Shown: positions 26,231-34,490 of the stretch, piece by piece
Numbering within the stretch: position 1 is the stretch's first letter
Layout of the letters: each line of letters opens with the position of its first letter
Origin: a plasmid
Sequence record: NZ_CP049149.1
DNA length: 64,000 nt
Reading direction: 5' to 3' (one strand)
Made by a program: the position numbers and the translations under genes
The notes under the pieces: model-generated
Seen by the model: the letters and a program-made list of their open reading frames with translations, nothing else
What the model was told of the DNA's origin: nothing
The model's database searches: none

Positions 26231-26302
26231 GCCTCAATACCTCTTCTTGCCTGTACGAGCAGCTTAGCTCCCTGTTCGTACAGTGATAATTTATAAGCAT
26301 CA

Positions 26303-26318
26303 GAAAACAAATTGTTTT
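26303..26318. promoter_or_regulatory. Palindromic motif GAAAACAAATTGTTTT upstream of the cobT-like gene
   Basis: AAAACAAnTTGTTT family. Confidence 0.35.
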
Positions 26319-26336
26319 AACAAACAAGGGATACTC

Positions 26337-28667
26337 ATGTCTAAACCCCACAAAAGAGCTGTACTGAAGGAGGTACAGGATTTTCGCGACTGTGTTAAAC
26401 GAGTGGTGGCAATGCTCTCTGGCAAAAGAATTCCTGTCGCTGAACGAGGCAATGAAGCGTTTGTTCGCTACAACAAACGTGGGGAGCCAGTACTCGTTAA
26501 CATTCCCTCCATTCCTGACGACGCCACTCCGACGCTCATGAATGCGGTACGCGGCTTCCTTGACCATGAGGTAGCCCATATCCTGTTTACTGATCCCAAA
26601 GTCGCCATGAACATGCGTAACAAGGGCAAAGCCCCATCGACAGGCCTGTGGAACGCGCTGGAGGATGTTTTTATTGAGCGCAAGATGGGGCAGGTGTTTG
26701 GCGGAACACGCCGCAATCTGCTGGCGACGCAGAAGCTGATCATTGAGAAATACTTCCAAACCAACGTGGCCAAAGCAGTAGCCGTCTGCAAAGGCGATCA
26801 GCGTGATTTGTTCCTGAAATTCTTTCTGTGCCCCGTCGTTCGAGCCTGGGATGGCCAAAGCCCTTTTGTTGAGTTTATGGAAGACCATTGGCATTACATC
26901 GCCAAGCCTGTAGCGCTGCTTAAAGAGCATGGTATTGATGTAGCGGTACGCAACATGTCCTGTACTGAGGATTGCGTAAAAGTGGCCGCAGCCATCGCTC
27001 TGCTCATGAAAGACCTGAAAGAAGAGACGGAAGGAAAGCTTCCGGAGAAAAAGTCTTCGGCCAAGAAACCATCTGGCAGCAAGGAAAAAGACGATGAGCC
27101 CGGACGTGAAGATGGCAACCCAGCAAGCCCGGAAAGCGATGACGAAGAGCCAGAAAATGGAGAAGATGAGCTGGGCGCAGCCGACCATAAAAGCGAGCCG
27201 AAGGATGATGAGTCTGGGGAGTTTGATGCGCCAAAATCATTAGATAAGTACTTACCTACTGACGATAAAAATATAAGTGATACAGATATTAATAATACGG
27301 AAGCAGGCTCTGATGGCATAAAAAACTCGCCAGATGAGGATTGTGGCGGTTCAGATGGTGAACATGACCAGAACGAGGAGAGCGCGCCAGCGCCGGGCGA
27401 TGGGATTCGCGAGGATGCAGACGAATCGGACGGATATGGCAGCGGCGAGGGTGATGCGTCAGAAGATGATCGTTCGGCCACAGGTGGTGGAAGCGATGGC
27501 GAGCCAGACAAAGACGGTGAAGAATCGGGTGAAGGAAGCGAGACGGAGGAAGGTGCCGAAGACTCACAGGATGACGACTCCGGGTGTGTGGCTTCTCCGG
27601 ACGATATGACGCTTGACGATGCACTCAAGGCACTGGACGAGGTTGAAGATGAGGTCGGGGAAGTAACAGAAGACGCGCTCTCTTCGACAATCAGCAGCGA
27701 ACTGAAAAGAACCTCTCTTGAGGAATATCGCCCATACGACCGCTCTTACGACTTTATCGGTCCAATCGACGAGGCAGAAGACCACATCAGGCGTACCAAA
27801 AAAGTCTTTGGAGCCATTCCGATGTACTCACCCATTGACCGTTATCGCATGGTTCCGGAAGGTCGCAAGCTGTTTGAGTTGTCCATCGAGCGACACCTGT
27901 CGGCCGGTGTATCTGCAACCCTCGCCAAAGATCTGGAGCGTGCGATTGCCAGCAGAAACCGGGTGCAGTTTATACCGGGTCAGCGTCGTGGCCGCATTCA
28001 TGGCTCCAGTCTTTATCGCCTGGCGATGAACGATGATCGCGTATTCCGTCGCAAGGAAGATCACCGTGCAGTTAACGCGTGCGTCCAGCAGGTTATCGAC
28101 TTATCAGGTTCAATGAGCGGCAAAAAGATTCACCTGGCACTGGCCAGCGCATACACCATCGCCGATGCACTCGACCGCATTAACGTGCCGAACATCATCA
28201 CCGGCTTCACCACGTTCGGAAATCCGGACTACTCGACAATGTCGAAAGCAGGGTTCTCACGTTTTGAAGCGCTGATGCTGCCAATCATCAAGAACTGGAA
28301 TGAGAAAGCGAACTCTCCGGAGATCCGCGCTCGTATGGGTTGTGTGGGCGAGACGTTCCCCCTGCTCAACAACGTTGATGGCGAGAGTATCGCGCAGCTG
28401 GCATCACTGTTTTCGGGGCGCATGGAGGACAAGAAAATCATGATGGTCATGAGCGATGGCGCGCCGTGTGCTGCTGGCGATGGGTTTGCTCCACATTTGA
28501 GATCTGTCACTAACGAGATCGAGACCTTAAGCGACATTGATCTCATGGCCATAGGCATCCTTACTGACGCTCCGAGACGCTATTACAAAAACTACGCCCT
28601 CGTGAACAGCGTTGAGCAAATCGGGCCATCGGTCGTTAAAGAGCTGTCTCGTATCATTCTCGGGTAA
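26337..28667 (+). CDS. CobT-like vWA-domain protein with long acidic linker
   Basis: C-terminal vWA MIDAS motif DLSGSMSG. Very acidic, low-complexity central region (D/E/S/G-rich). RBS aaggga. Confidence 0.6.
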   Translation: MSKPHKRAVLKEVQDFRDCVKRVVAMLSGKRIPVAERGNEAFVRYNKRGEPVLVNIPSIPDDATPTLMNAVRGFLDHEVAHILFTDPKVAMNMRNKGKAPSTGLWNALEDVFIERKMGQVFGGTRRNLLATQKLIIEKYFQTNVAKAVAVCKGDQRDLFLKFFLCPVVRAWDGQSPFVEFMEDHWHYIAKPVALLKEHGIDVAVRNMSCTEDCVKVAAAIALLMKDLKEETEGKLPEKKSSAKKPSGSKEKDDEPGREDGNPASPESDDEEPENGEDELGAADHKSEPKDDESGEFDAPKSLDKYLPTDDKNISDTDINNTEAGSDGIKNSPDEDCGGSDGEHDQNEESAPAPGDGIREDADESDGYGSGEGDASEDDRSATGGGSDGEPDKDGEESGEGSETEEGAEDSQDDDSGCVASPDDMTLDDALKALDEVEDEVGEVTEDALSSTISSELKRTSLEEYRPYDRSYDFIGPIDEAEDHIRRTKKVFGAIPMYSPIDRYRMVPEGRKLFELSIERHLSAGVSATLAKDLERAIASRNRVQFIPGQRRGRIHGSSLYRLAMNDDRVFRRKEDHRAVNACVQQVIDLSGSMSGKKIHLALASAYTIADALDRINVPNIITGFTTFGNPDYSTMSKAGFSRFEALMLPIIKNWNEKANSPEIRARMGCVGETFPLLNNVDGESIAQLASLFSGRMEDKKIMMVMSDGAPCAAGDGFAPHLRSVTNEIETLSDIDLMAIGILTDAPRRYYKNYALVNSVEQIGPSVVKELSRIILG

Positions 28668-28761: not shown

Positions 28762-29997
28762 ATGGCCGCTAATGCACTGAATCAAGAACAGCAACTGCCT
28801 GAAACCATCGTCTGCAAATGGTGTGGCAAATCCTTTCACCACCTCAAATCTCACATTTCTATGGGGCGCTGCGAAAACCTTCCGGAAGCAGCGAAAGGCC
28901 TGGATGTCGATGAGGTGGTGAAGATGTACACCACGGAGTTTCCGGACGAACCGACCATTTCCAGCACCGCGCTGGCCAAACTCAAAGAGAAGCGTGCCGA
29001 ACTGCATACCGGAGATAGCAAAGTCGCGGAGATCAGCGCGCACCCAGGCTATGTGGGTTCTGTTGAGTACAAGACGGAGCTGGTAGCCGCGCACGAGCTG
29101 CTTGGCGTAACGCTGAAAGAGCTGGGAACGCCACGAGGCAGACCCCTGCAGGTAACGGTGAACGTCAATACGCCATACCCGGAGTTCATACCGGAAGTGA
29201 AGAAGAACTATGTGTATGGCGATTTCGATCTGATTAAAGACGTCTTCATGATGCTGGAGATTGGCATCCCTGGCTATCTCTGGGGTCACGCTGGCACCGG
29301 CAAATCCTCACTGCCAACGCAGCTCTGTGCTCTGCTCAATCGCCCGCTTATCCGCGCACAGCACACCGCTTCGATGGAGGAAAGCCATGTAACGGGTCAG
29401 ATCCTCGCGCGCGACGGCTCCACCTACTTTGAGCCTGGGCTGCTGGCGCTGGCCATGAAAAACGGTTGGGTTTACCTGGCTGACGAATACGACTTCGCTT
29501 TCCCGCAGATTCTTGGCGTGTACCAGCCGGTACTGGAAGGAGAGCCGCTCATCGTTAAAGAGGCGACTCCGGACTGGCGCCGCATTACGCCACATAAGCG
29601 CTTCGCCTTCATCGGAACAGGTAACACCAACGGATCTGGCGACGAAACCGGTCTCTATCAAGGCACGAACATCCAGAACGCCGCGAACTTCTCACGCTTT
29701 GGCATCGTGTCCAACGTGAAATACATGAGTCCGGAGGCAGAAACAAACATGTTGGTTCAGGCGGGCATCATTCGCGAGTACGCCGAGAAAATAGTGAAGT
29801 TCGCCAATCTCGTTCGCGAAGGGTACGAACAGCACCTCATCAGTCAGCCTATCGGTCCTCGTGAACTGCTGCTGGCTTCAAAAATCGGAATGATGCGCGG
29901 CGACTTTGCTGCTGGCATCGAGAAGGCGTTCATCAACAAGCTGCCATCCACGTCTGCCCAGGCTTCACGTGAGGTGGTTCAGAAGATCTTCGGTTAA
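28762..29997 (+). CDS. CobS/MoxR-like AAA+ ATPase
   Basis: Walker A GHAGTGKSSL and Walker B VYLADEYD. Paired with the vWA protein, as in CobS/CobT-like phage gene pairs. Confidence 0.65.
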   Translation: MAANALNQEQQLPETIVCKWCGKSFHHLKSHISMGRCENLPEAAKGLDVDEVVKMYTTEFPDEPTISSTALAKLKEKRAELHTGDSKVAEISAHPGYVGSVEYKTELVAAHELLGVTLKELGTPRGRPLQVTVNVNTPYPEFIPEVKKNYVYGDFDLIKDVFMMLEIGIPGYLWGHAGTGKSSLPTQLCALLNRPLIRAQHTASMEESHVTGQILARDGSTYFEPGLLALAMKNGWVYLADEYDFAFPQILGVYQPVLEGEPLIVKEATPDWRRITPHKRFAFIGTGNTNGSGDETGLYQGTNIQNAANFSRFGIVSNVKYMSPEAETNMLVQAGIIREYAEKIVKFANLVREGYEQHLISQPIGPRELLLASKIGMMRGDFAAGIEKAFINKLPSTSAQASREVVQKIFG

Positions 29998-30177: not shown

Positions 30178-32541
30178 ATGAAGGCTCTGATGGTCAGAAC
30201 TGACTTCTCGCTGGGGGAGTCAGCGCTAAAAGCAGAAAAGGCGGTCAAAATTGCAAAGGAAGCTGGCTATACCGCTGTCATTTCCGCTGACAGCATGAAT
30301 ATTGCCAGTGTCATCCCCCTCCAGCGCGCCGCGGGTGACGATATGGCGGTGATCTGTGGTGTTAAGCTGAATATTGTCGACGACCCCACATACGAGCACC
30401 GCGCCCGAATGGCGAAAGAGTCTGATAGATGTATGGAATCATTGGTGCGTGACCGTAGTTACAGCTTCACTGCACTCATCAAAAATGAGCAAGGTTATCG
30501 CGATGTTTGCGAGCTGATGACCTTAGCGAACAAGCGCGAGCAATTTTACTTCGTACCACGTCTGGCTCTCGACCAGCTGGCTACCGTTTATGCCAAAGGC
30601 AACATCATCCTGCTGACGTCCGACATGGGCAGCGTATTCCAGCGCCGCGACTTCGCGAAGATCATTAGCACGTTGGTTTCTGCGGGTGGGCGCGACAACT
30701 TCTACAGCGTGGTTTATCCGCACCCTACGCCATTCTACGACCAGATTAACGTCCGGGCGATGAAAGTGGCGAGCGCATTGAAAATCGAGCCAGTGGCGTT
30801 CTATCCCGCTTATTACGAAGCTGTCGAGGATGCAGACATTAAAGACATTGCGCACATGGTGACGAACAACATCAAGATCGACCAGCCGCATCGTCTCCGT
30901 ATTCCCCACCAGCGTGACAACGCCATCAATGGGCGCCGGCATCTGCTTGAGGCGCTCAAAGCATTCTCCGTTCGGATGGGTGTACCAGTGACGGCGGCTA
31001 TGGTATCGACGACACAGGACGCGATCATCGAAGCCTGCACCTGGCGCTGGCACGAACTGCCACCGGCATTACCAAAGATGGCCGAAGACGAACCTGCTGC
31101 ACTGATGAAACTTGCGGTTGCTGGCCTGCGCAAGCGTCTCACCACCAAAGAGTTTGGCTATACGCCACCAGCGTCTGAGCACCGTGTATATGTTGATCGT
31201 CTCAAGTATGAAATGGATACGCTGACCCGCCTGGGCTTCTGCGGTTACTTTCTGATGGTGCGCGATTTGATGAATCACAGTCGCGAAACCGGTATTCCAG
31301 TTGGCCCCGGTCGTGGTTCATCTGCTGGCTCTCTGGTGGCCTGGTGTATCGGCATCACCAACGTTGACCCAATCCGCCACGGTCTTCTGTTTGAGCGTTT
31401 CATTAACCCTGAGCGTCTCGACCTTCCGGATGCAGATCTGGACTTTAGCCAGGCACGTCGCCATGAGGTGATCGAGTATCTGAATGAGCGCTATGGCGAG
31501 GACTATGTTGCCGGTATTCCTAACTTCACTTATCTGGGCGCGGCTTCCGCGCTGCGCGATACCGCTCGTATTTATGGCGTCGACGCCGCGGATATGGCGG
31601 TGTCCAAAGAGTTCAAGAATCTGGAAGACGATAGCCTGTCACTGGAAGAACTGCGCGAGCAGCTGGCCAGCCTGGACAAATACGCTAACAAAAACCCGGA
31701 AGCGTTTAAGGCGGCGTGCAAGCTGCAAAGTCTGATGCGTGGCTTCGGCCGCCACGCTGCGGGCATGATTGTCGCTGGCGTACCACTGGTTGAGCGCACG
31801 CCCGTAGAGCTGCGGGGTAATGCGCGCTGCATTGCGTTCGATAAGCGTTACTGCGAGGCAATGGGGCTGATTAAGCTGGACGTACTCGGTCTGGCCACGC
31901 TCGATCTGCTGGATAGCGCAAAGCGTTACATCAAAGAGAGCACTGGCAACGATATCAACCTCGACGCCATTCCACTCGACGACCGCAAAGTTCTGGATGG
32001 TTTCGCAGCTGGCTACACACAGGGCGTCTTCCAGCTGGAATCTGGCCCAATGCGCAAGCTGCTTAAAGATCTGGGTAGCGGTATCGAGCCAATGAGCTTT
32101 AAAACGGTTGTCGCGACCACCGCGCTCTTCCGCCCCGGCCCCATCCAGTCAGGCATGTTGGATGACTACGTTTCTGTGGCCAAAGGCTTCATGCCACCAC
32201 ATTCCTTGCACCCAATGCTAGACGATATATCTCGCGATACAAACGGCGTACTGATTTATCAGGAGCAAATCATGGCTGCTACGCGAATCCTGGCGGGGTT
32301 CTCAATGGCGGAAGCAGACTCGGTCAGGAAAGCGATCGGGAAAAAAGATATGGAAAAAATGAAATCCATTGGTGGCGACTTCATTAAGCGAGCGGAGAAA
32401 GGCTGGGTGACAGTGTCACTTGATGATGGTTCTACGCGGAAAATTCATAAAACGGCACGTTTGCTTTGCGCTGATGGTGAGCGTCGTACTTACGCCGAAG
32501 CAATGGCTGTAAATGCCGACATAACGAGCTTCGATATTTGA
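30178..32541 (+). CDS. dnaE: DNA polymerase III alpha (DnaE-type) N-terminal fragment: PHP and polymerase core
   Basis: PHP domain followed by GSSAGSLVAWCIGIT and catalytic aspartates in RLDLPDADLDF. The fragment ends at ...FIKRAEKG plus a 45-aa unrelated tail, about 25 aa before the conserved FNKSHS motif. Confidence 0.8.
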   Translation: MKALMVRTDFSLGESALKAEKAVKIAKEAGYTAVISADSMNIASVIPLQRAAGDDMAVICGVKLNIVDDPTYEHRARMAKESDRCMESLVRDRSYSFTALIKNEQGYRDVCELMTLANKREQFYFVPRLALDQLATVYAKGNIILLTSDMGSVFQRRDFAKIISTLVSAGGRDNFYSVVYPHPTPFYDQINVRAMKVASALKIEPVAFYPAYYEAVEDADIKDIAHMVTNNIKIDQPHRLRIPHQRDNAINGRRHLLEALKAFSVRMGVPVTAAMVSTTQDAIIEACTWRWHELPPALPKMAEDEPAALMKLAVAGLRKRLTTKEFGYTPPASEHRVYVDRLKYEMDTLTRLGFCGYFLMVRDLMNHSRETGIPVGPGRGSSAGSLVAWCIGITNVDPIRHGLLFERFINPERLDLPDADLDFSQARRHEVIEYLNERYGEDYVAGIPNFTYLGAASALRDTARIYGVDAADMAVSKEFKNLEDDSLSLEELREQLASLDKYANKNPEAFKAACKLQSLMRGFGRHAAGMIVAGVPLVERTPVELRGNARCIAFDKRYCEAMGLIKLDVLGLATLDLLDSAKRYIKESTGNDINLDAIPLDDRKVLDGFAAGYTQGVFQLESGPMRKLLKDLGSGIEPMSFKTVVATTALFRPGPIQSGMLDDYVSVAKGFMPPHSLHPMLDDISRDTNGVLIYQEQIMAATRILAGFSMAEADSVRKAIGKKDMEKMKSIGGDFIKRAEKGWVTVSLDDGSTRKIHKTARLLCADGERRTYAEAMAVNADITSFDI

Positions 32542-32560
32542 TATTTAATTTATAAGATAA

Positions 32561-32575
32561 GAAAACAATTTGTTT
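32561..32575. promoter_or_regulatory. Palindromic motif GAAAACAATTTGTTT upstream of the HNH endonuclease gene
   Basis: AAAACAAnTTGTTT family, lying inside the dnaE split. Confidence 0.35.
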
Positions 32576-32589
32576 AGTGAGTTTAAGTA

Positions 32590-33324
32590 ATGCCGGGTAC
32601 GAAGTACAAAATCACAGAAGAATGGTTACGTCAGCGTTACATGGTTGACCTGATGAGAAAAGAAGACATTGCAGCCGAAGCTGGTTGCAGCAAGGCAAAT
32701 ATTGACCGCCTATTGGCCAAGTGGGGGATTAGACGCGGGAGCGCTCGGATATCCGCTACCCCAGCTTGGAACCAAGGCAAAAATAAAAACAACGACGAAC
32801 GCATGAAGCGACTCTCCGAAGCCCGGACTGGCGCTGGCAACCCTATGTATGGGAAGACCGCGTGGAATACTGGTCTGCGTGCTGATACCGATGAGCGAGT
32901 GTCCGCCGTATCGAAAAAACTGCTCGGCAAAACAATCAGTGCGGATACGAAGGAAAAGCTTGCGGCTGCCAAACGCGGAAAGTTGGGTGATGAAGCGAAC
33001 AACTATAAAGGTGGCGTCATCTTAAAAACTAACGGCTATCTGATGCGGCTGGTTGGTAACAACGGCGTTTCGCAATACGAATACGTTCATCGGTTGATAG
33101 CGAAAGAACGGCTCGGCCGAGCGCTACGTGACAATGAACATGTACACCACATTAACCGCAATACGGTAGACAACGCTCCTGGGAATCTGGTGGCACTTCC
33201 AGAAGACGCCCACATTCGCCTGCATCATGACATGCGTGATGAGGTATGGAGCTGGGAGCGTCAGCGAGAATGGCTCATCGCCAATGGGTATGAGTTCGTG
33301 AAGATTGATGAGGTGACTGCATGA
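32590..33324 (+). CDS. Free-standing HNH homing endonuclease inserted within dnaE
   Basis: HNH motif HHINRNTVDNAPGNLVALPEDAHIRLHH. In the same frame as dnaE-N but separated from it by two stop codons. Has its own RBS (agtttaagtaATG). Confidence 0.75.
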   Translation: MPGTKYKITEEWLRQRYMVDLMRKEDIAAEAGCSKANIDRLLAKWGIRRGSARISATPAWNQGKNKNNDERMKRLSEARTGAGNPMYGKTAWNTGLRADTDERVSAVSKKLLGKTISADTKEKLAAAKRGKLGDEANNYKGGVILKTNGYLMRLVGNNGVSQYEYVHRLIAKERLGRALRDNEHVHHINRNTVDNAPGNLVALPEDAHIRLHHDMRDEVWSWERQREWLIANGYEFVKIDEVTA

Positions 33325-34490
33325 AAATTACCGGTGTTGTTGAAGAGAGTAATGGCCTGACGCATGAACGAGCCGAAGAAATCTGGAATATGTTTGAAAA
33401 ATCCGGCGCGTATGCCTTTAACAAATCGCACTCTGTTGCTTATTCTTTAATCAGCTATCAGTCCATGTGGCTAAAAACGCACTACCCGGCTGAGTTTTTT
33501 GCTGCTGCGCTCACCATTCTGGGCGAGGACAAACATCAGGGGCTTGTGAAGGATGCGCTGACCTATGGCATTCGCGTACTGCCACCAGATGTGAACATAT
33601 CGTCTAATCGCATTGAGATCCGCACGCTGGAAGATGGCAGCCAGGTTCTTTACGCGCCCTTCTCTGCCATCAAAGGATGCTCTGAGAATGGTTGCCAGGC
33701 CATCATGCGAGCACGAGAAAAGGTCGGTGGCGCATTCGAGTCACTGGCGCAGTTTGAAGAAGCGGTAGAGAAGCGTGCCTGCAATAGCCGAGTACGTGAA
33801 TCGCTGGACAAAGTTGGGGCGTTTGCATCCATTGATCCGGGCAGCTTGCCAGCCACCGCTCCGGAACGTCTGCGCGACCAGGCGGAGCTGATGGGCAATC
33901 TGGTAATCGACGCAGTGAAAGCCTCACGTCCGTTTGAAATGAACCCCAAGCGCTCTGCTGAGGTCAATTTGCTTATGACGCGCATGGCGGCCGAAATGGG
34001 CTTAGGAGATGAGCTGATCCGCCCAAGCATCGGCATTAAACCGAAAATCATGGTCATTCTGGATAACGCGAACGGCAATGATGGGCGTACCGGTTACTTC
34101 ATGGAGAACGGCTATGACGACTTCAAGGCCAAACTGCTTACTGCAGGCGACTTACGCATGGGCGATCTGTATGTCACCGGCGTATGTAAAAAGGTGAAGG
34201 ACAAAGAGAAAGACTACACCAAAGATGAAATCGGCCAGTTCACCGACTTCATGCGTGAAGAGATAAACCTGGTACGTCCGACTTATGTGCTGACGTGTGG
34301 CAGCCGGGCGACATCACTCTTCAATAACAAGAGCAAACCGTCAGATCTGGTTGGTCGTAAAGAGTATCTGCCGGAGCTGGATGTCACCGTCTTCTACGGG
34401 TTTAACCCGAACATTTTGTACTTCCGTCCAGAGGAAGGAGAAAAGCTGGAAGCGATTCTGGCAGAGGTAGCGGAGACTATTAACAAATGA
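33321..34490 (+). CDS. dnaE: DNA polymerase III alpha (DnaE-type) C-terminal fragment
   Basis: Begins ...ERAEEIWNMFEKSGAYAFNKSHSVAYSLISYQSMWLKTHYPAEFFAA, matching E. coli DnaE around the FNKSHS motif. ATGA overlap with the HNH stop codon. Different frame from the N-fragment. Confidence 0.7.
   Translation: MKITGVVEESNGLTHERAEEIWNMFEKSGAYAFNKSHSVAYSLISYQSMWLKTHYPAEFFAAALTILGEDKHQGLVKDALTYGIRVLPPDVNISSNRIEIRTLEDGSQVLYAPFSAIKGCSENGCQAIMRAREKVGGAFESLAQFEEAVEKRACNSRVRESLDKVGAFASIDPGSLPATAPERLRDQAELMGNLVIDAVKASRPFEMNPKRSAEVNLLMTRMAAEMGLGDELIRPSIGIKPKIMVILDNANGNDGRTGYFMENGYDDFKAKLLTAGDLRMGDLYVTGVCKKVKDKEKDYTKDEIGQFTDFMREEINLVRPTYVLTCGSRATSLFNNKSKPSDLVGRKEYLPELDVTVFYGFNPNILYFRPEEGEKLEAILAEVAETINK

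Follow-up and report, generated by a model that had tools for sequence, protein, structure and literature searches.

A DnaE-type replicative polymerase gene cut into two conserved genes by a mobile HNH endonuclease gene in an SSU5-like Cronobacter phage-plasmid

In NZ_CP049149.1, an SSU5-like Cronobacter phage-plasmid, a mobile HNH endonuclease gene divides the gene for a DnaE-type replicative DNA polymerase into two genes that are both still conserved. Here, we describe the split locus within the window (the whole 64,000-nucleotide stretch of DNA analyzed; all features are on the plus strand). We read it, with a probability of about 0.8, as a functional two-chain replicative polymerase of the "genes-in-pieces" kind, split via an imported endonuclease cassette and probably clasped by an insert at the break. 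The enzyme would be made as polypeptides of 787 and 389 amino acids (aa) that reassemble non-covalently.

The divided gene and its junction

The ORF list gives the polymerase gene as two open reading frames (ORFs), 30178 to 32541 (787 aa) and 33321 to 34490 (389 aa), with an HNH ORF between them. An earlier sequence-only reading had described exactly these three ORFs, and its claim that a free-standing HNH gene separates the colinear halves of a DnaE-type polymerase is supported. The N-fragment contains the PHP, palm/thumb, and most of the fingers (Pfam PHP, DNA_pol3_alpha, and DNA_pol3_finger) and spans positions 9 to 727 of the 1146-position DnaE profile PRK05673; the exact protein is in databases as [quoted passage not shown] The C-fragment comprises, in order, a mini-domain strand (residues 1 to 12), the FNKSHS part of the fingers, a helix-hairpin-helix, and a UDG-like C-terminal domain. 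Pfam returned HHH_6 and a weak UDG match for this fragment, and its C-terminal domain (residues ~268 to 386) resembles family-4 UDG (TIGR00758 UDG_fam4, 2.3e-8; TM-score of 0.79 to family-4 UDG structures with Foldseek). In its source records, the exact C-fragment protein carries the name "uracil-DNA glycosylase."

No polymerase residue is lost at the break: the N-fragment covers profile positions 9 to 727 and the C-fragment covers 725 to 886; together, the 787 and 389 aa hold every residue of the single chain, and they align end to end with fused alleles of 1168 to 1174 aa. The break maps to a fingers-domain loop, near Escherichia coli DnaE residue 730 to 735. As first read, the N-fragment stops before FNKSHS, but by 32 residues rather than about 25, since FNKSHS begins at C-fragment residue 33. 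Assembly error was rejected as the cause of the split, given identical endonuclease proteins on 63 contigs and identical C-fragments on 94 (mostly Cronobacter) and the same N-fragment/endonuclease/C-fragment layout in 23 complete plasmids.

The free-standing HNH homing-endonuclease gene (32590 to 33324; 244 aa) carries NUMOD3 and HNH_3 (Pfam) and matches phrog_21964 (PHROG, 1.3e-144); its endonuclease activity and target site are predictions. An orthologue with 46% identity occupies this site in another polymerase, the C-fragment of which shares only ~40% identity, and dN/dS for the endonuclease is 0.17 to 0.23. The frames were initially said to differ, which is true of the C-fragment; the endonuclease ORF is in the frame of the N-fragment, with four in-frame stops between the two (32539, 32575, 32578, and 32584). 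Three of these follow the N-fragment's own stop within a 48-nt intercistronic spacer (32542 to 32589), a homologue of which is retained by Buttiauxella p1WJP83, whose split allele has no endonuclease. The ribosome-binding site ascribed to the HNH ORF is present but weak.

The spacer holds a palindrome, GAAAACAATTTGTTT (AAACAA-N-TTGTTT), at 32561 to 32575, the motif copy already noticed beside the HNH ORF. A motif count found seven sites in the window, where chance alone would give 0.28, all seven in AT-rich intergenic DNA 8 to 45 nt upstream of plus-strand starts and several directly after terminator-like hairpins, and we regard the motif as a putative genome-wide promoter or operator element. 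Every enteric allele of the window's cassette type has it, as do both split alleles that lack an endonuclease (two copies in L021), and among the alleles fetched it is absent from NUMOD4 alleles and from fused alleles. At the other end, the restart of the C-fragment by an ATGA overlap in a different frame is real (ATG at 33321; endonuclease TGA at 33322 to 33324). The endonuclease ORF contains, in its 3' end, a Shine-Dalgarno sequence for the C-fragment, GAGGTG (33310 to 33315), 5 nt upstream of the ATG; with the stop/start overlap, it suggests that translation of the C-fragment is coupled to that of the endonuclease.

In all split alleles, a beta-rich insert of ~53 aa straddles the break. The insert is missing from 45 of 49 distant fused representatives but is not strictly tied to the split state, since enteric fused alleles have it too. 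Its N-side (residues 742 to 787; 32401 to 32538), which ends ...NADITSFDI, extends ~46 aa past the canonical DnaE profile (Pfam and NCBIfam) and has a homologue in all split alleles. An AlphaFold2 model of an artificial fusion of the two fragments (mean pLDDT, 84.6; 74 to 90 over the junction, residues 741 to 800) placed strands at 743 to 748, 753 to 757, and 762 to 764 and a helix at 772 to 777 in the N-tail (pLDDT, 81 to 90), followed by a C-fragment strand at 790 to 797 of the concatenated chains. Over both fragments, the model matched single-chain Pol III alpha (2HNH; TM-score, 0.77). The insert probably holds the two polymerase halves together, with the N-tail strands and the first C-fragment strand forming the clasp; that the two chains assemble physically is our inference.

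Imported cassette and recurrence of the break

Comparison with unsplit dnaE of related elements, as the sequence-only reading had proposed, delimited a conversion tract at 32200 to 33422 (N-fragment 3' end, spacer, endonuclease, and first 34 C-fragment codons), with crossovers between 32173 and 32201 and between 33423 and 33427. Outside the tract, identity to an unsplit, endonuclease-free Cronobacter allele (L001) is 99.2% (23 mismatches in 3014 nt); within it, identity to the same allele is 44 to 77% (100-nt windows), and identity to an endonuclease-bearing Enterobacter allele (L003) is ~90%. No cassette donor closer than ~90% identity was found. The import is the window's tract, because the fused Cronobacter cassette and its own flanks show equal divergence from SSU5. 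Four junction cassettes, with mutual identities of only 55 to 63%, sit on backbones that are 95 to 98% identical.

The tract looks like the product of gene conversion. The endonuclease and the split clearly reached the window together, and the break in this genome was received as a ready-made split cassette rather than made by the window's endonuclease. We propose that an SSU5-like dnaE allele of Cronobacter, unsplit until then, received a copy of a mobile cassette, most likely by endonuclease-initiated double-strand-break repair with co-conversion of the flanks. The cassette would have supplied the last ~113 codons of the N-gene, including the 46-aa beta-rich tail and stop codon; the short spacer with its promoter- or operator-like palindrome, followed by the homing-endonuclease gene; and a new Shine-Dalgarno sequence, ATG, and the first ~34 codons of the C-gene.

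The same codon is the split point in about 295 of ~815 related plasmids. Between the two genes lies the window's endonuclease (23 complete plasmids), an unrelated NUMOD4-HNH endonuclease (~242 complete plasmids, with the junction position confirmed in the inspected records only), or just a 69- to 70-bp spacer (29 Klebsiella plasmids and one Buttiauxella plasmid). The window's endonuclease occurs in only 23 of 785 related plasmids, inside the polymerase gene wherever inspected.

To collect distant relatives, cluster representatives at 50% identity were searched exhaustively with HMMER, which gave 112 full-coverage matches. Stand-alone C-fragments make up 39 of the 112 and start no more than 25 residues from the same point (no more than 1 residue from it in 27); most of them begin MK[IV], and stand-alone C-fragments with a like start are conserved down to ~30% identity. 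Gene order is conserved at seven distant loci (N-fragment, endonuclease or nothing, C-fragment), six of which have an endonuclease. Split and fused states are scattered on a C-domain tree (23 changes versus 25.5 for shuffled labels), which is a rough neighbor-joining tree of very divergent sequences.

Selection and alternative readings

Both fragments are under purifying selection. For the window against alleles sharing its cassette, dN/dS is 0.03 to 0.04 for the N-fragment and 0.02 for the C-fragment, and the junction-linked N-tail gives 0.03 to 0.05 at a dS of 0.34 to 0.45. Intact 787- and 389-aa ORFs were found in nine of the nine other split alleles fetched.

The alternative that fares best, though we consider it unlikely, is that the two-gene state, with its mini-domain and regulatory spacer, was selected in its own right and that endonucleases are secondary squatters, moving again and again into the intergenic gap, rather than its cause. 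This overlaps with the two-chain reading and differs solely in which came first. It would account for a single break that holds two unrelated endonuclease families or none, for endonuclease-free split alleles being common in one Klebsiella lineage (the 29 plasmids and a cluster of 383 member sequences), and for a spacer motif that is genome-wide and is kept or even duplicated in endonuclease-free alleles; a review of T4-related phages asks likewise for gene 43 of phage 25 versus 44RR (PMC2988022). However, an endonuclease is present at nearly all of the distant split loci, and in the window, it arrived with the split. The split is also scattered on the tree and lies in recombinant tracts on near-identical backbones, so spread as a mobile element fits better than vertical inheritance.

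The sequence-only reading had offered two outcomes, two assembling polypeptides or a decaying pseudogene, inactivated by endonuclease insertion in an element dependent on host Pol III. The first is favored; the second we hold to be very improbable. Many RefSeq plasmid records have no PGAP protein for the fragments, which suggests pseudogene flags, and SSU5-like elements have plasmid replication functions too. Decay is nevertheless at odds with ORFs that are intact in every split allele examined, with the low dN/dS values, junction-linked flanks included, and with the conserved starts of distant stand-alone C-fragments. The C-fragment moreover keeps a good Shine-Dalgarno sequence, and roughly a third of the family's complete plasmids are split.

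Least probable of all, and hardly credible here, is that the halves are joined after expression, by protein trans-splicing (a split intein) or through RNA splicing of a group I/II intron housing the endonuclease. There are precedents in metagenomic DnaE genes that split inteins fracture and in which a free-standing endonuclease lies between the parts, and in cyanobacterial DnaE, which is split ~30 residues downstream of the present break and trans-spliced, but split-intein N-halves have 88 to 105 residues (PMC2677866), against only ~46 + 8 to 12 non-canonical residues at this break. In L022, a distant relative, pieces of the polymerase give weak matches to inteins. The flanking residues belong to the mature protein, because fused alleles retain them, and endonuclease-free split alleles have merely 69 to 70 nt between the genes. 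The junction was rightly read as not intein-like: N-fragment termini vary (...FDI, ...FGV, ...DTSK, and ...LDTL), C-fragments start MK[IV], neither a conserved nucleophile (Cys, Ser, or Thr) nor His-Asn is present, and Pfam found no Hint or intein domain. No intron was found by Rfam (E up to 10) over 31800 to 34000.

Known split and invaded genes

A DNA polymerase group I intron of Bacillus phages SPO1/SP82 reportedly encodes the HNH endonuclease I-HmuI (Landthaler et al. in 2004). As proposed here, the target is a DNA polymerase gene of a phage, and gene conversion spreads the HNH-family homing endonuclease; I-HmuI is intron encoded, and the mRNA is spliced into one ORF, whereas no intron is detectable at the window's locus. 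Cyanobacterial split DnaE, said to carry a naturally split intein (Wu, Hu and Liu in 1998; Caspi et al. in 2003), is of the same enzyme family, with its break in the same part of the fingers domain. The alignment of PRK07373, which we take to be the model of the cyanobacterial DnaE C-half, begins ~30 residues downstream of the break, at C-fragment residue 31. The cyanobacterial halves lie at separate loci and are trans-spliced covalently, whereas the present genes are adjacent, lack intein halves, and encode chains that would have to stay non-covalent.

"Fractured genes," which have a split intein as well as a free-standing endonuclease and include three DnaE loci (Dassa et al. 2009, PMC2677866), share with this locus the order of N-part, free-standing endonuclease, and C-part, and control elements upstream of the endonuclease that outlast its loss. 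They differ in their split inteins (88 to 105 residues on the N-side), GIY-YIG or Vsr-like endonucleases, and integration points.

Split gene 43 of T4-related Aeromonas phages is, as here, a two-polypeptide replicative polymerase whose gap is a homing-endonuclease gene (seg43(25) in phage 25) or a short intercistronic untranslated sequence (44RR), and its halves co-purify and are active (PMC2988022). It raises the same question, whether the split is the work of the endonuclease or was already there when the endonuclease moved in. Gene 43 encodes a PolB enzyme in virulent T4-like phages, with an endonuclease of an unrelated family, whereas the present split is in DnaE/PolIIIalpha of temperate phage-plasmids of Enterobacterales.

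Split NrdA likewise involves neither intron nor intein and has additional tails (C- and N-terminal) at the break, which occur only in the split form, derive from the homing endonuclease gene, and are essential for assembly and activity (Crona et al. 2011, PMC3045599). It is a class I RNR split with mobE, whereas the window has a C-family DNA polymerase and NUMOD3 or NUMOD4 HNH endonucleases are found at the break; activity and assembly, demonstrated for NrdA, are proposed for the polymerase here. Unlike the NrdA split, the polymerase break is shared by hundreds of plasmids and by many lineages that diverged deeply, and it comes with two endonuclease families or with none. The split is common and old, with a break point that recurs across the polymerase family.

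Layout of the locus and identity of its products

An ORF scan returned the three-gene layout of the sequence-only reading, at exactly its coordinates: the N-fragment of a DnaE-type polymerase (30178–32541, 787 aa; Pfam PHP, DNA_pol3_alpha, and DNA_pol3_finger), an endonuclease (32590–33324, 244 aa; Pfam NUMOD3 and HNH_3), and the C-fragment of the polymerase (33321–34490, 389 aa; Pfam HHH_6 and a weak uracil-DNA glycosylase [UDG] match). By direct reading of the sequence, the N-fragment stop lies at 32539 and is followed by three more in-frame stops before the endonuclease ATG, with a palindrome, GAAAACAATTTGTTT, at 32561–32575. The endonuclease TGA is overlapped by the C-fragment ATG at 33321, and a Shine-Dalgarno sequence (GAGGTG, 33310–33315) stands 5 nt before that ATG. 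A change of frame had been described for this region; it applies to the C-fragment, but the endonuclease shares the frame of the N-fragment. As FNKSHS starts at C-fragment residue 33, the break lies 32 residues upstream of this segment, rather than the roughly 25 first estimated.

The domains of a DnaE-type (C-family) alpha subunit were present (PHP, palm [Pol-beta-like nucleotidyltransferase], thumb, fingers, and helix-hairpin-helix), NCBIfam TIGR00594 scored 511 bits (cutoff, 434), and a model of the concatenated chains matched 2HPI and 2HNH in Foldseek (E values, 1e-46 to 1e-54). The OB fold and tau-binding domain of cellular DnaE were not encountered, and Pfam gave no OB-fold match. The C-terminal 120 to 190 residues match family-4 UDG (TIGR00758, 2.3e-8; Foldseek TM-score of 0.79 to 4ZBX), with the UDG-like domain placed at 34122–34478 (C-fragment residues ~268–386) and all NCBIfam equivalog scores short of their cutoffs. 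Because the polymerase ends in this domain, the free C-fragment is named "uracil-DNA glycosylase" in databases.

The two fragments are colinear with a single polymerase and between them cover the single-chain protein: positions 9–727 of the DnaE profile PRK05673 fall in the N-fragment and positions 725–886 in the C-fragment. Joined, they (1176 aa) align end to end with fused alleles, and nothing is lost at the break, which corresponds to about residue 730–735 of E. coli DnaE. Extra to canonical DnaE are ~46 residues closing the N-fragment and 8 to 12 opening the C-fragment. The alignment with PRK07373, which we take to be a model of the cyanobacterial DnaE C-half, begins only at C-fragment residue 31, ~30 residues downstream of the break.

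The intervening gene encodes an HNH catalytic domain and DNA-binding modules of the sort usual in homing endonucleases (Pfam HNH_3, 4.4e-8; NUMOD3, 6.4e-7; phrog_21964 "HNH endonuclease," 1.3e-144) with an intact His/Asn motif (...HVHHINRN...NL...H). It was confirmed as free-standing, having its own ATG and being separated from the N-fragment by four in-frame stops. A PDB search gave no sequence relative at E values up to 1, and no paralogue of the endonucleases was found elsewhere within the window.

Directly upstream of the polymerase lie a CobT-like protein (26283–28667), with a long acidic low-complexity region and a faint VWA match in one relative (L020), and an AAA_5 (CobS/MoxR-like) ATPase (28762–29997). 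The position of this pair is kept in all relatives, even where the polymerase C-fragment is ~35 to 40% identical. Three proteins of 879 to 1075 aa (P0137, P0210, and P0240) combine the N-part of the polymerase with a RecA domain (PF00154), which suggests that, in some plasmids, deletions have joined dnaE to the recA-like gene lying downstream.

Readings of the break

Decay to a pseudogene, the alternative offered by the sequence-only reading, was rejected on dN/dS ratios and ORF integrity. The window was compared pairwise with five alleles that share its cassette type, four bearing the endonuclease and the fifth from Buttiauxella, giving dN/dS of 0.03–0.04 for the N-fragment and 0.02 for the C-fragment; the endonuclease (four alleles) gave 0.17–0.23. 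Because the final 113 N-fragment codons move together with the split, the divergence seen in them (dS, 0.34–0.45; dN/dS, 0.03–0.05) arose while the gene was already in two parts. Both the 787- and 389-aa ORFs were intact in all nine other split alleles fetched. Purifying selection thus acts on both fragments, and each retains translation signals of its own.

Many RefSeq plasmid records (H4–H23 and H193–H204) lack the polymerase fragments in their protein tables, listing the endonuclease or nothing; the fragments were probably flagged as pseudogenes, though the ORFs are intact in the three RefSeq records checked (L006–L008).

An intein or split intein was rejected: Pfam detected no Hint/intein domain, and the tails at the break are too short and are kept in fused alleles. 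N-fragment termini are variable, C-fragments begin MK[IV] with no conserved nucleophile, and the earlier description of the junction as not intein-like stands. In split alleles free of the endonuclease, the intergenic gap is just 69 to 70 nt. An intron-encoded endonuclease was rejected likewise: an Rfam search for a conserved group I/II intron RNA core (31800–34000; E values up to 10) returned two chance-level matches only, and non-coding DNA amounts to 48 nt here and to 2 and 19 nt in alleles carrying a NUMOD4 endonuclease. Fusion by read-through or frameshifting was ruled out by the four in-frame stops, the 782-nt gap, and the complete endonuclease ORF between the fragments. Assembly error, which the initial reading had allowed for, is excluded, since all three proteins are matched exactly by plasmid proteins of Cronobacter sakazakii and C. 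malonaticus, with dozens of independent contigs encoding them (63 for the endonuclease, 94 for the C-fragment), and the same layout occurs in 23 complete plasmids.

What stands is the principal claim of the sequence-only reading, a DnaE-type polymerase split by a free-standing HNH gene with neither intron nor intein. Very probably, the polymerase works in the form of two chains.

Recurrence of the break and import of the junction cassette

The region matches 785 Enterobacterales plasmid records and 12 phage records, Salmonella phage SSU5 among them. Unsplit alleles (Cronobacter plasmids and SSU5) are single 1172-aa ORFs, and comparison with these SSU5-like relatives, proposed on first reading, defined the break site. 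The split is found in about a third of SSU5/pHCM2/pMT1-like Enterobacterales phage-plasmids in PLSDB, including Klebsiella, E. coli, Enterobacter, and Salmonella plasmids, many of clinical origin. The endonuclease of the window is sporadic at this one site (23 of the 785 plasmids); an unrelated NUMOD4-HNH endonuclease is present in ~242 PLSDB records, with an identical junction (787 plus 389 aa) in those inspected, and the break persists with only a 69-bp spacer in Buttiauxella p1WJP83 and a 70-bp spacer in a Klebsiella lineage (29 plasmids). Among 5426 E. coli RefSeq genomes, 23 have the allele with the endonuclease of the window, always plasmid-borne.

Outside a 1.2-kb tract (~32200–33422), a sliding comparison of the window with the unsplit Cronobacter allele found 23 differences in 3014 positions (99.2% identity); inside it, identity is 44 to 77% to that allele and ~90% to the Enterobacter allele with the same endonuclease. 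Since the Cronobacter fused junction has diverged from SSU5 as much as the remainder of the gene, the tract in the window is the imported piece. Four types of junction cassette (fused SSU5-like, fused E. coli pYLPI6a-like, split NUMOD4, and split NUMOD3, as in the window) are 55 to 63% identical among themselves, on backbones that are 95 to 98% identical. Such divergent cassettes on near-identical backbones are, on these alignments, the mark that gene conversion leaves around a homing endonuclease, and by this route the endonuclease reached the window as part of a junction cassette that was already complete. Over the 200 nt that immediately precede the imported piece (31978–32177), the window is 100% identical to the Enterobacter hormaechei NUMOD4 allele (L004), against 86 to 94% elsewhere, a second recombination patch adjoining the junction.

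Deeper recurrence was assessed by an exhaustive HMMER search with the C-fragment over 50%-identity cluster representatives (112 near-full-length matches); an earlier protein search with the C-fragment gave no fused proteins, an apparent length bias, and was not used as a census. The matches comprised 39 stand-alone C-fragments whose starts lie no more than 25 residues from the break point, 49 fused full-length proteins, and 24 of other lengths, so that about a third of deeply diverged relatives are broken at or near the same point. The start lies within 1 residue of that point in 27 of the 39 stand-alone C-fragments, most of which begin MK[IV]. At seven distant loci the N-fragment is followed by an endonuclease or nothing and then by the C-fragment, within a conserved gene order (CobT, AAA_5, polymerase, gp32, 5'-3' exonuclease, and RecA). 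Three of these carry a NUMOD3/HNH_3-type endonuclease (46% identical to that of the window in L018, the one compared), three a NUMOD4/HNH_3 endonuclease (41% identical to the enteric one in L020, the one compared), and one none. A search with the N-fragment found split (784 to 792 aa) and fused (1168 to 1210 aa) forms throughout the range from 92% to 54% identity, and a neighbor-joining tree of the C-domain required 23 split/fused changes, versus a mean of 25.5 for shuffled labels, so the split/fused state is highly labile or recombining. As read from these comparisons, the split arrangement is ancient, widespread, and polymorphic.

The polymerase gene appears to be targeted by several different mobile elements. 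In a metagenomic relative (L022:1634–7650), no fewer than three pieces (481, 373, and 549 aa) make up the polymerase; between them lie a 339-aa ORF of unknown family and an HNH_3 gene, and the middle piece has weak PT-HINT and Intein_splicing matches. Piece-sized PHROGs families (phrog_13169 and phrog_21652) indicate a second break close to residue 414. Relatives also have mobile elements in further genes of this replication module (L018:572–1393 and L027:6017–7300), where a free-standing GIY-YIG/NUMOD3 gene adjoins the AAA_5 ATPase and a RecA homologue contains an intein and a LAGLIDADG domain.

Palindromic motif, insert, and two-chain model

The motif GAAAACAANTTGTTT occurs at seven sites in the window (1668, 8437, 11720, 26303, 32561, 41316, and 53416; + strand, all intergenic) versus 0.28 expected by chance. 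Each is preceded by an AT-rich stretch (TATAAG/ATTAA) and has a + strand start codon 8 to 45 nt downstream; terminator-like hairpins precede three. Every enteric allele of the window's cassette type has the motif, as do endonuclease-free spacers (once in Buttiauxella, twice in the split allele L021); it was not found in the NUMOD4 or fused alleles fetched. From this placement it looks like the operator or the promoter used by a phage-plasmid regulon, and promoter/operator function is plausible at the spacer; as a sigma-70 scan of the spacer found no consensus promoter (counts at the level of shuffled sequence), that role remains a guess.

The residues extra to canonical DnaE form a beta-rich insert of ~53 aa straddling the break. 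In every split allele, whether closely or remotely related, a homologous N-tail follows the canonical helix (roughly ...G[WYF].EV.L.DG...K.HR...K......T.EE........ and then a stop) and the C-fragment head has the pattern MK[IV]..[IV]..L.DG[ML]. The insert is absent from 45 of the 49 distant fused representatives, which run straight through like E. coli DnaE. Enteric fused alleles contain it, a pattern compatible with secondary re-fusion.

AlphaFold2 modeled the concatenated chains with a mean pLDDT of 84.6 and a pTM of 0.75 (pLDDT, 74 to 90 over residues 741–800), and the model superposes on single-chain Pol III alpha over both fragments (Foldseek; 2HNH, TM-score of 0.77). On the N-side of the break, strands were predicted at 743–748, 753–757, and 762–764 and a helix at 772–777; a further strand (790–797) derives from the C-fragment. 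From this model we infer that strands pair across the break.

A further reading, with a chance of roughly one in three, is that the insert is a portable protein-complementation module traveling with the endonuclease cassette. Gene conversion would install tails and endonuclease together, so that a single event could fracture the polymerase yet leave it working, and enteric fused alleles would descend from split ones that had been joined again. The palindrome, as a putative internal promoter/operator, may also let the C-fragment, with its helix-hairpin-helix and UDG-like domain, be expressed on its own.

The closest analogue of the split is nrdA/mobE of phage Aeh1, where the enzyme cannot work without the tails that the insertion produced (PMC3045599). 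Next closest is the split gene 43 of T4-related phages, with a seg endonuclease in the gap in one phage and intercistronic sequence only in another; its halves co-purify and are active (PMC2988022). In cyanobacterial DnaE, a split intein joins halves from separate loci, and metagenomic "fractured genes," DnaE included, have a split intein around a free-standing endonuclease (PMC2677866); both depend on protein splicing, unlike the locus in the window. The "minimal Pol III" of jumbo phages (PMC7824862) also differs, being encoded by distant genes with no endonuclease; it is the partial exception to our finding no intein-free split of a DnaE-type polymerase in the literature searched. No description of a split SSU5-type dnaE was found in the openly searchable literature.

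With this locus, the rare "genes-in-pieces" solution, seen in RNR and PolB of T4-like phages, extends to a replicative polymerase of the DnaE type. Databases widely give the C-fragment the wrong name, "uracil-DNA glycosylase," or assign it to families of unknown function, and apparent pseudogene flags in many RefSeq records distort pangenome and replication-module analyses. Near-identical backbones carry the gene fused, split around one or the other of two endonucleases, or split with no endonuclease, which makes a tractable system for homing, endonuclease loss, and target-site escape, and the conserved mini-domain at the break is a candidate natural non-covalent split-protein clasp. If the portable-module reading is true, it would be a third way to neutralize mobile-element insertion, besides RNA splicing and protein splicing, at work throughout a polymerase family of phages and phage-plasmids that is both large and ancient.
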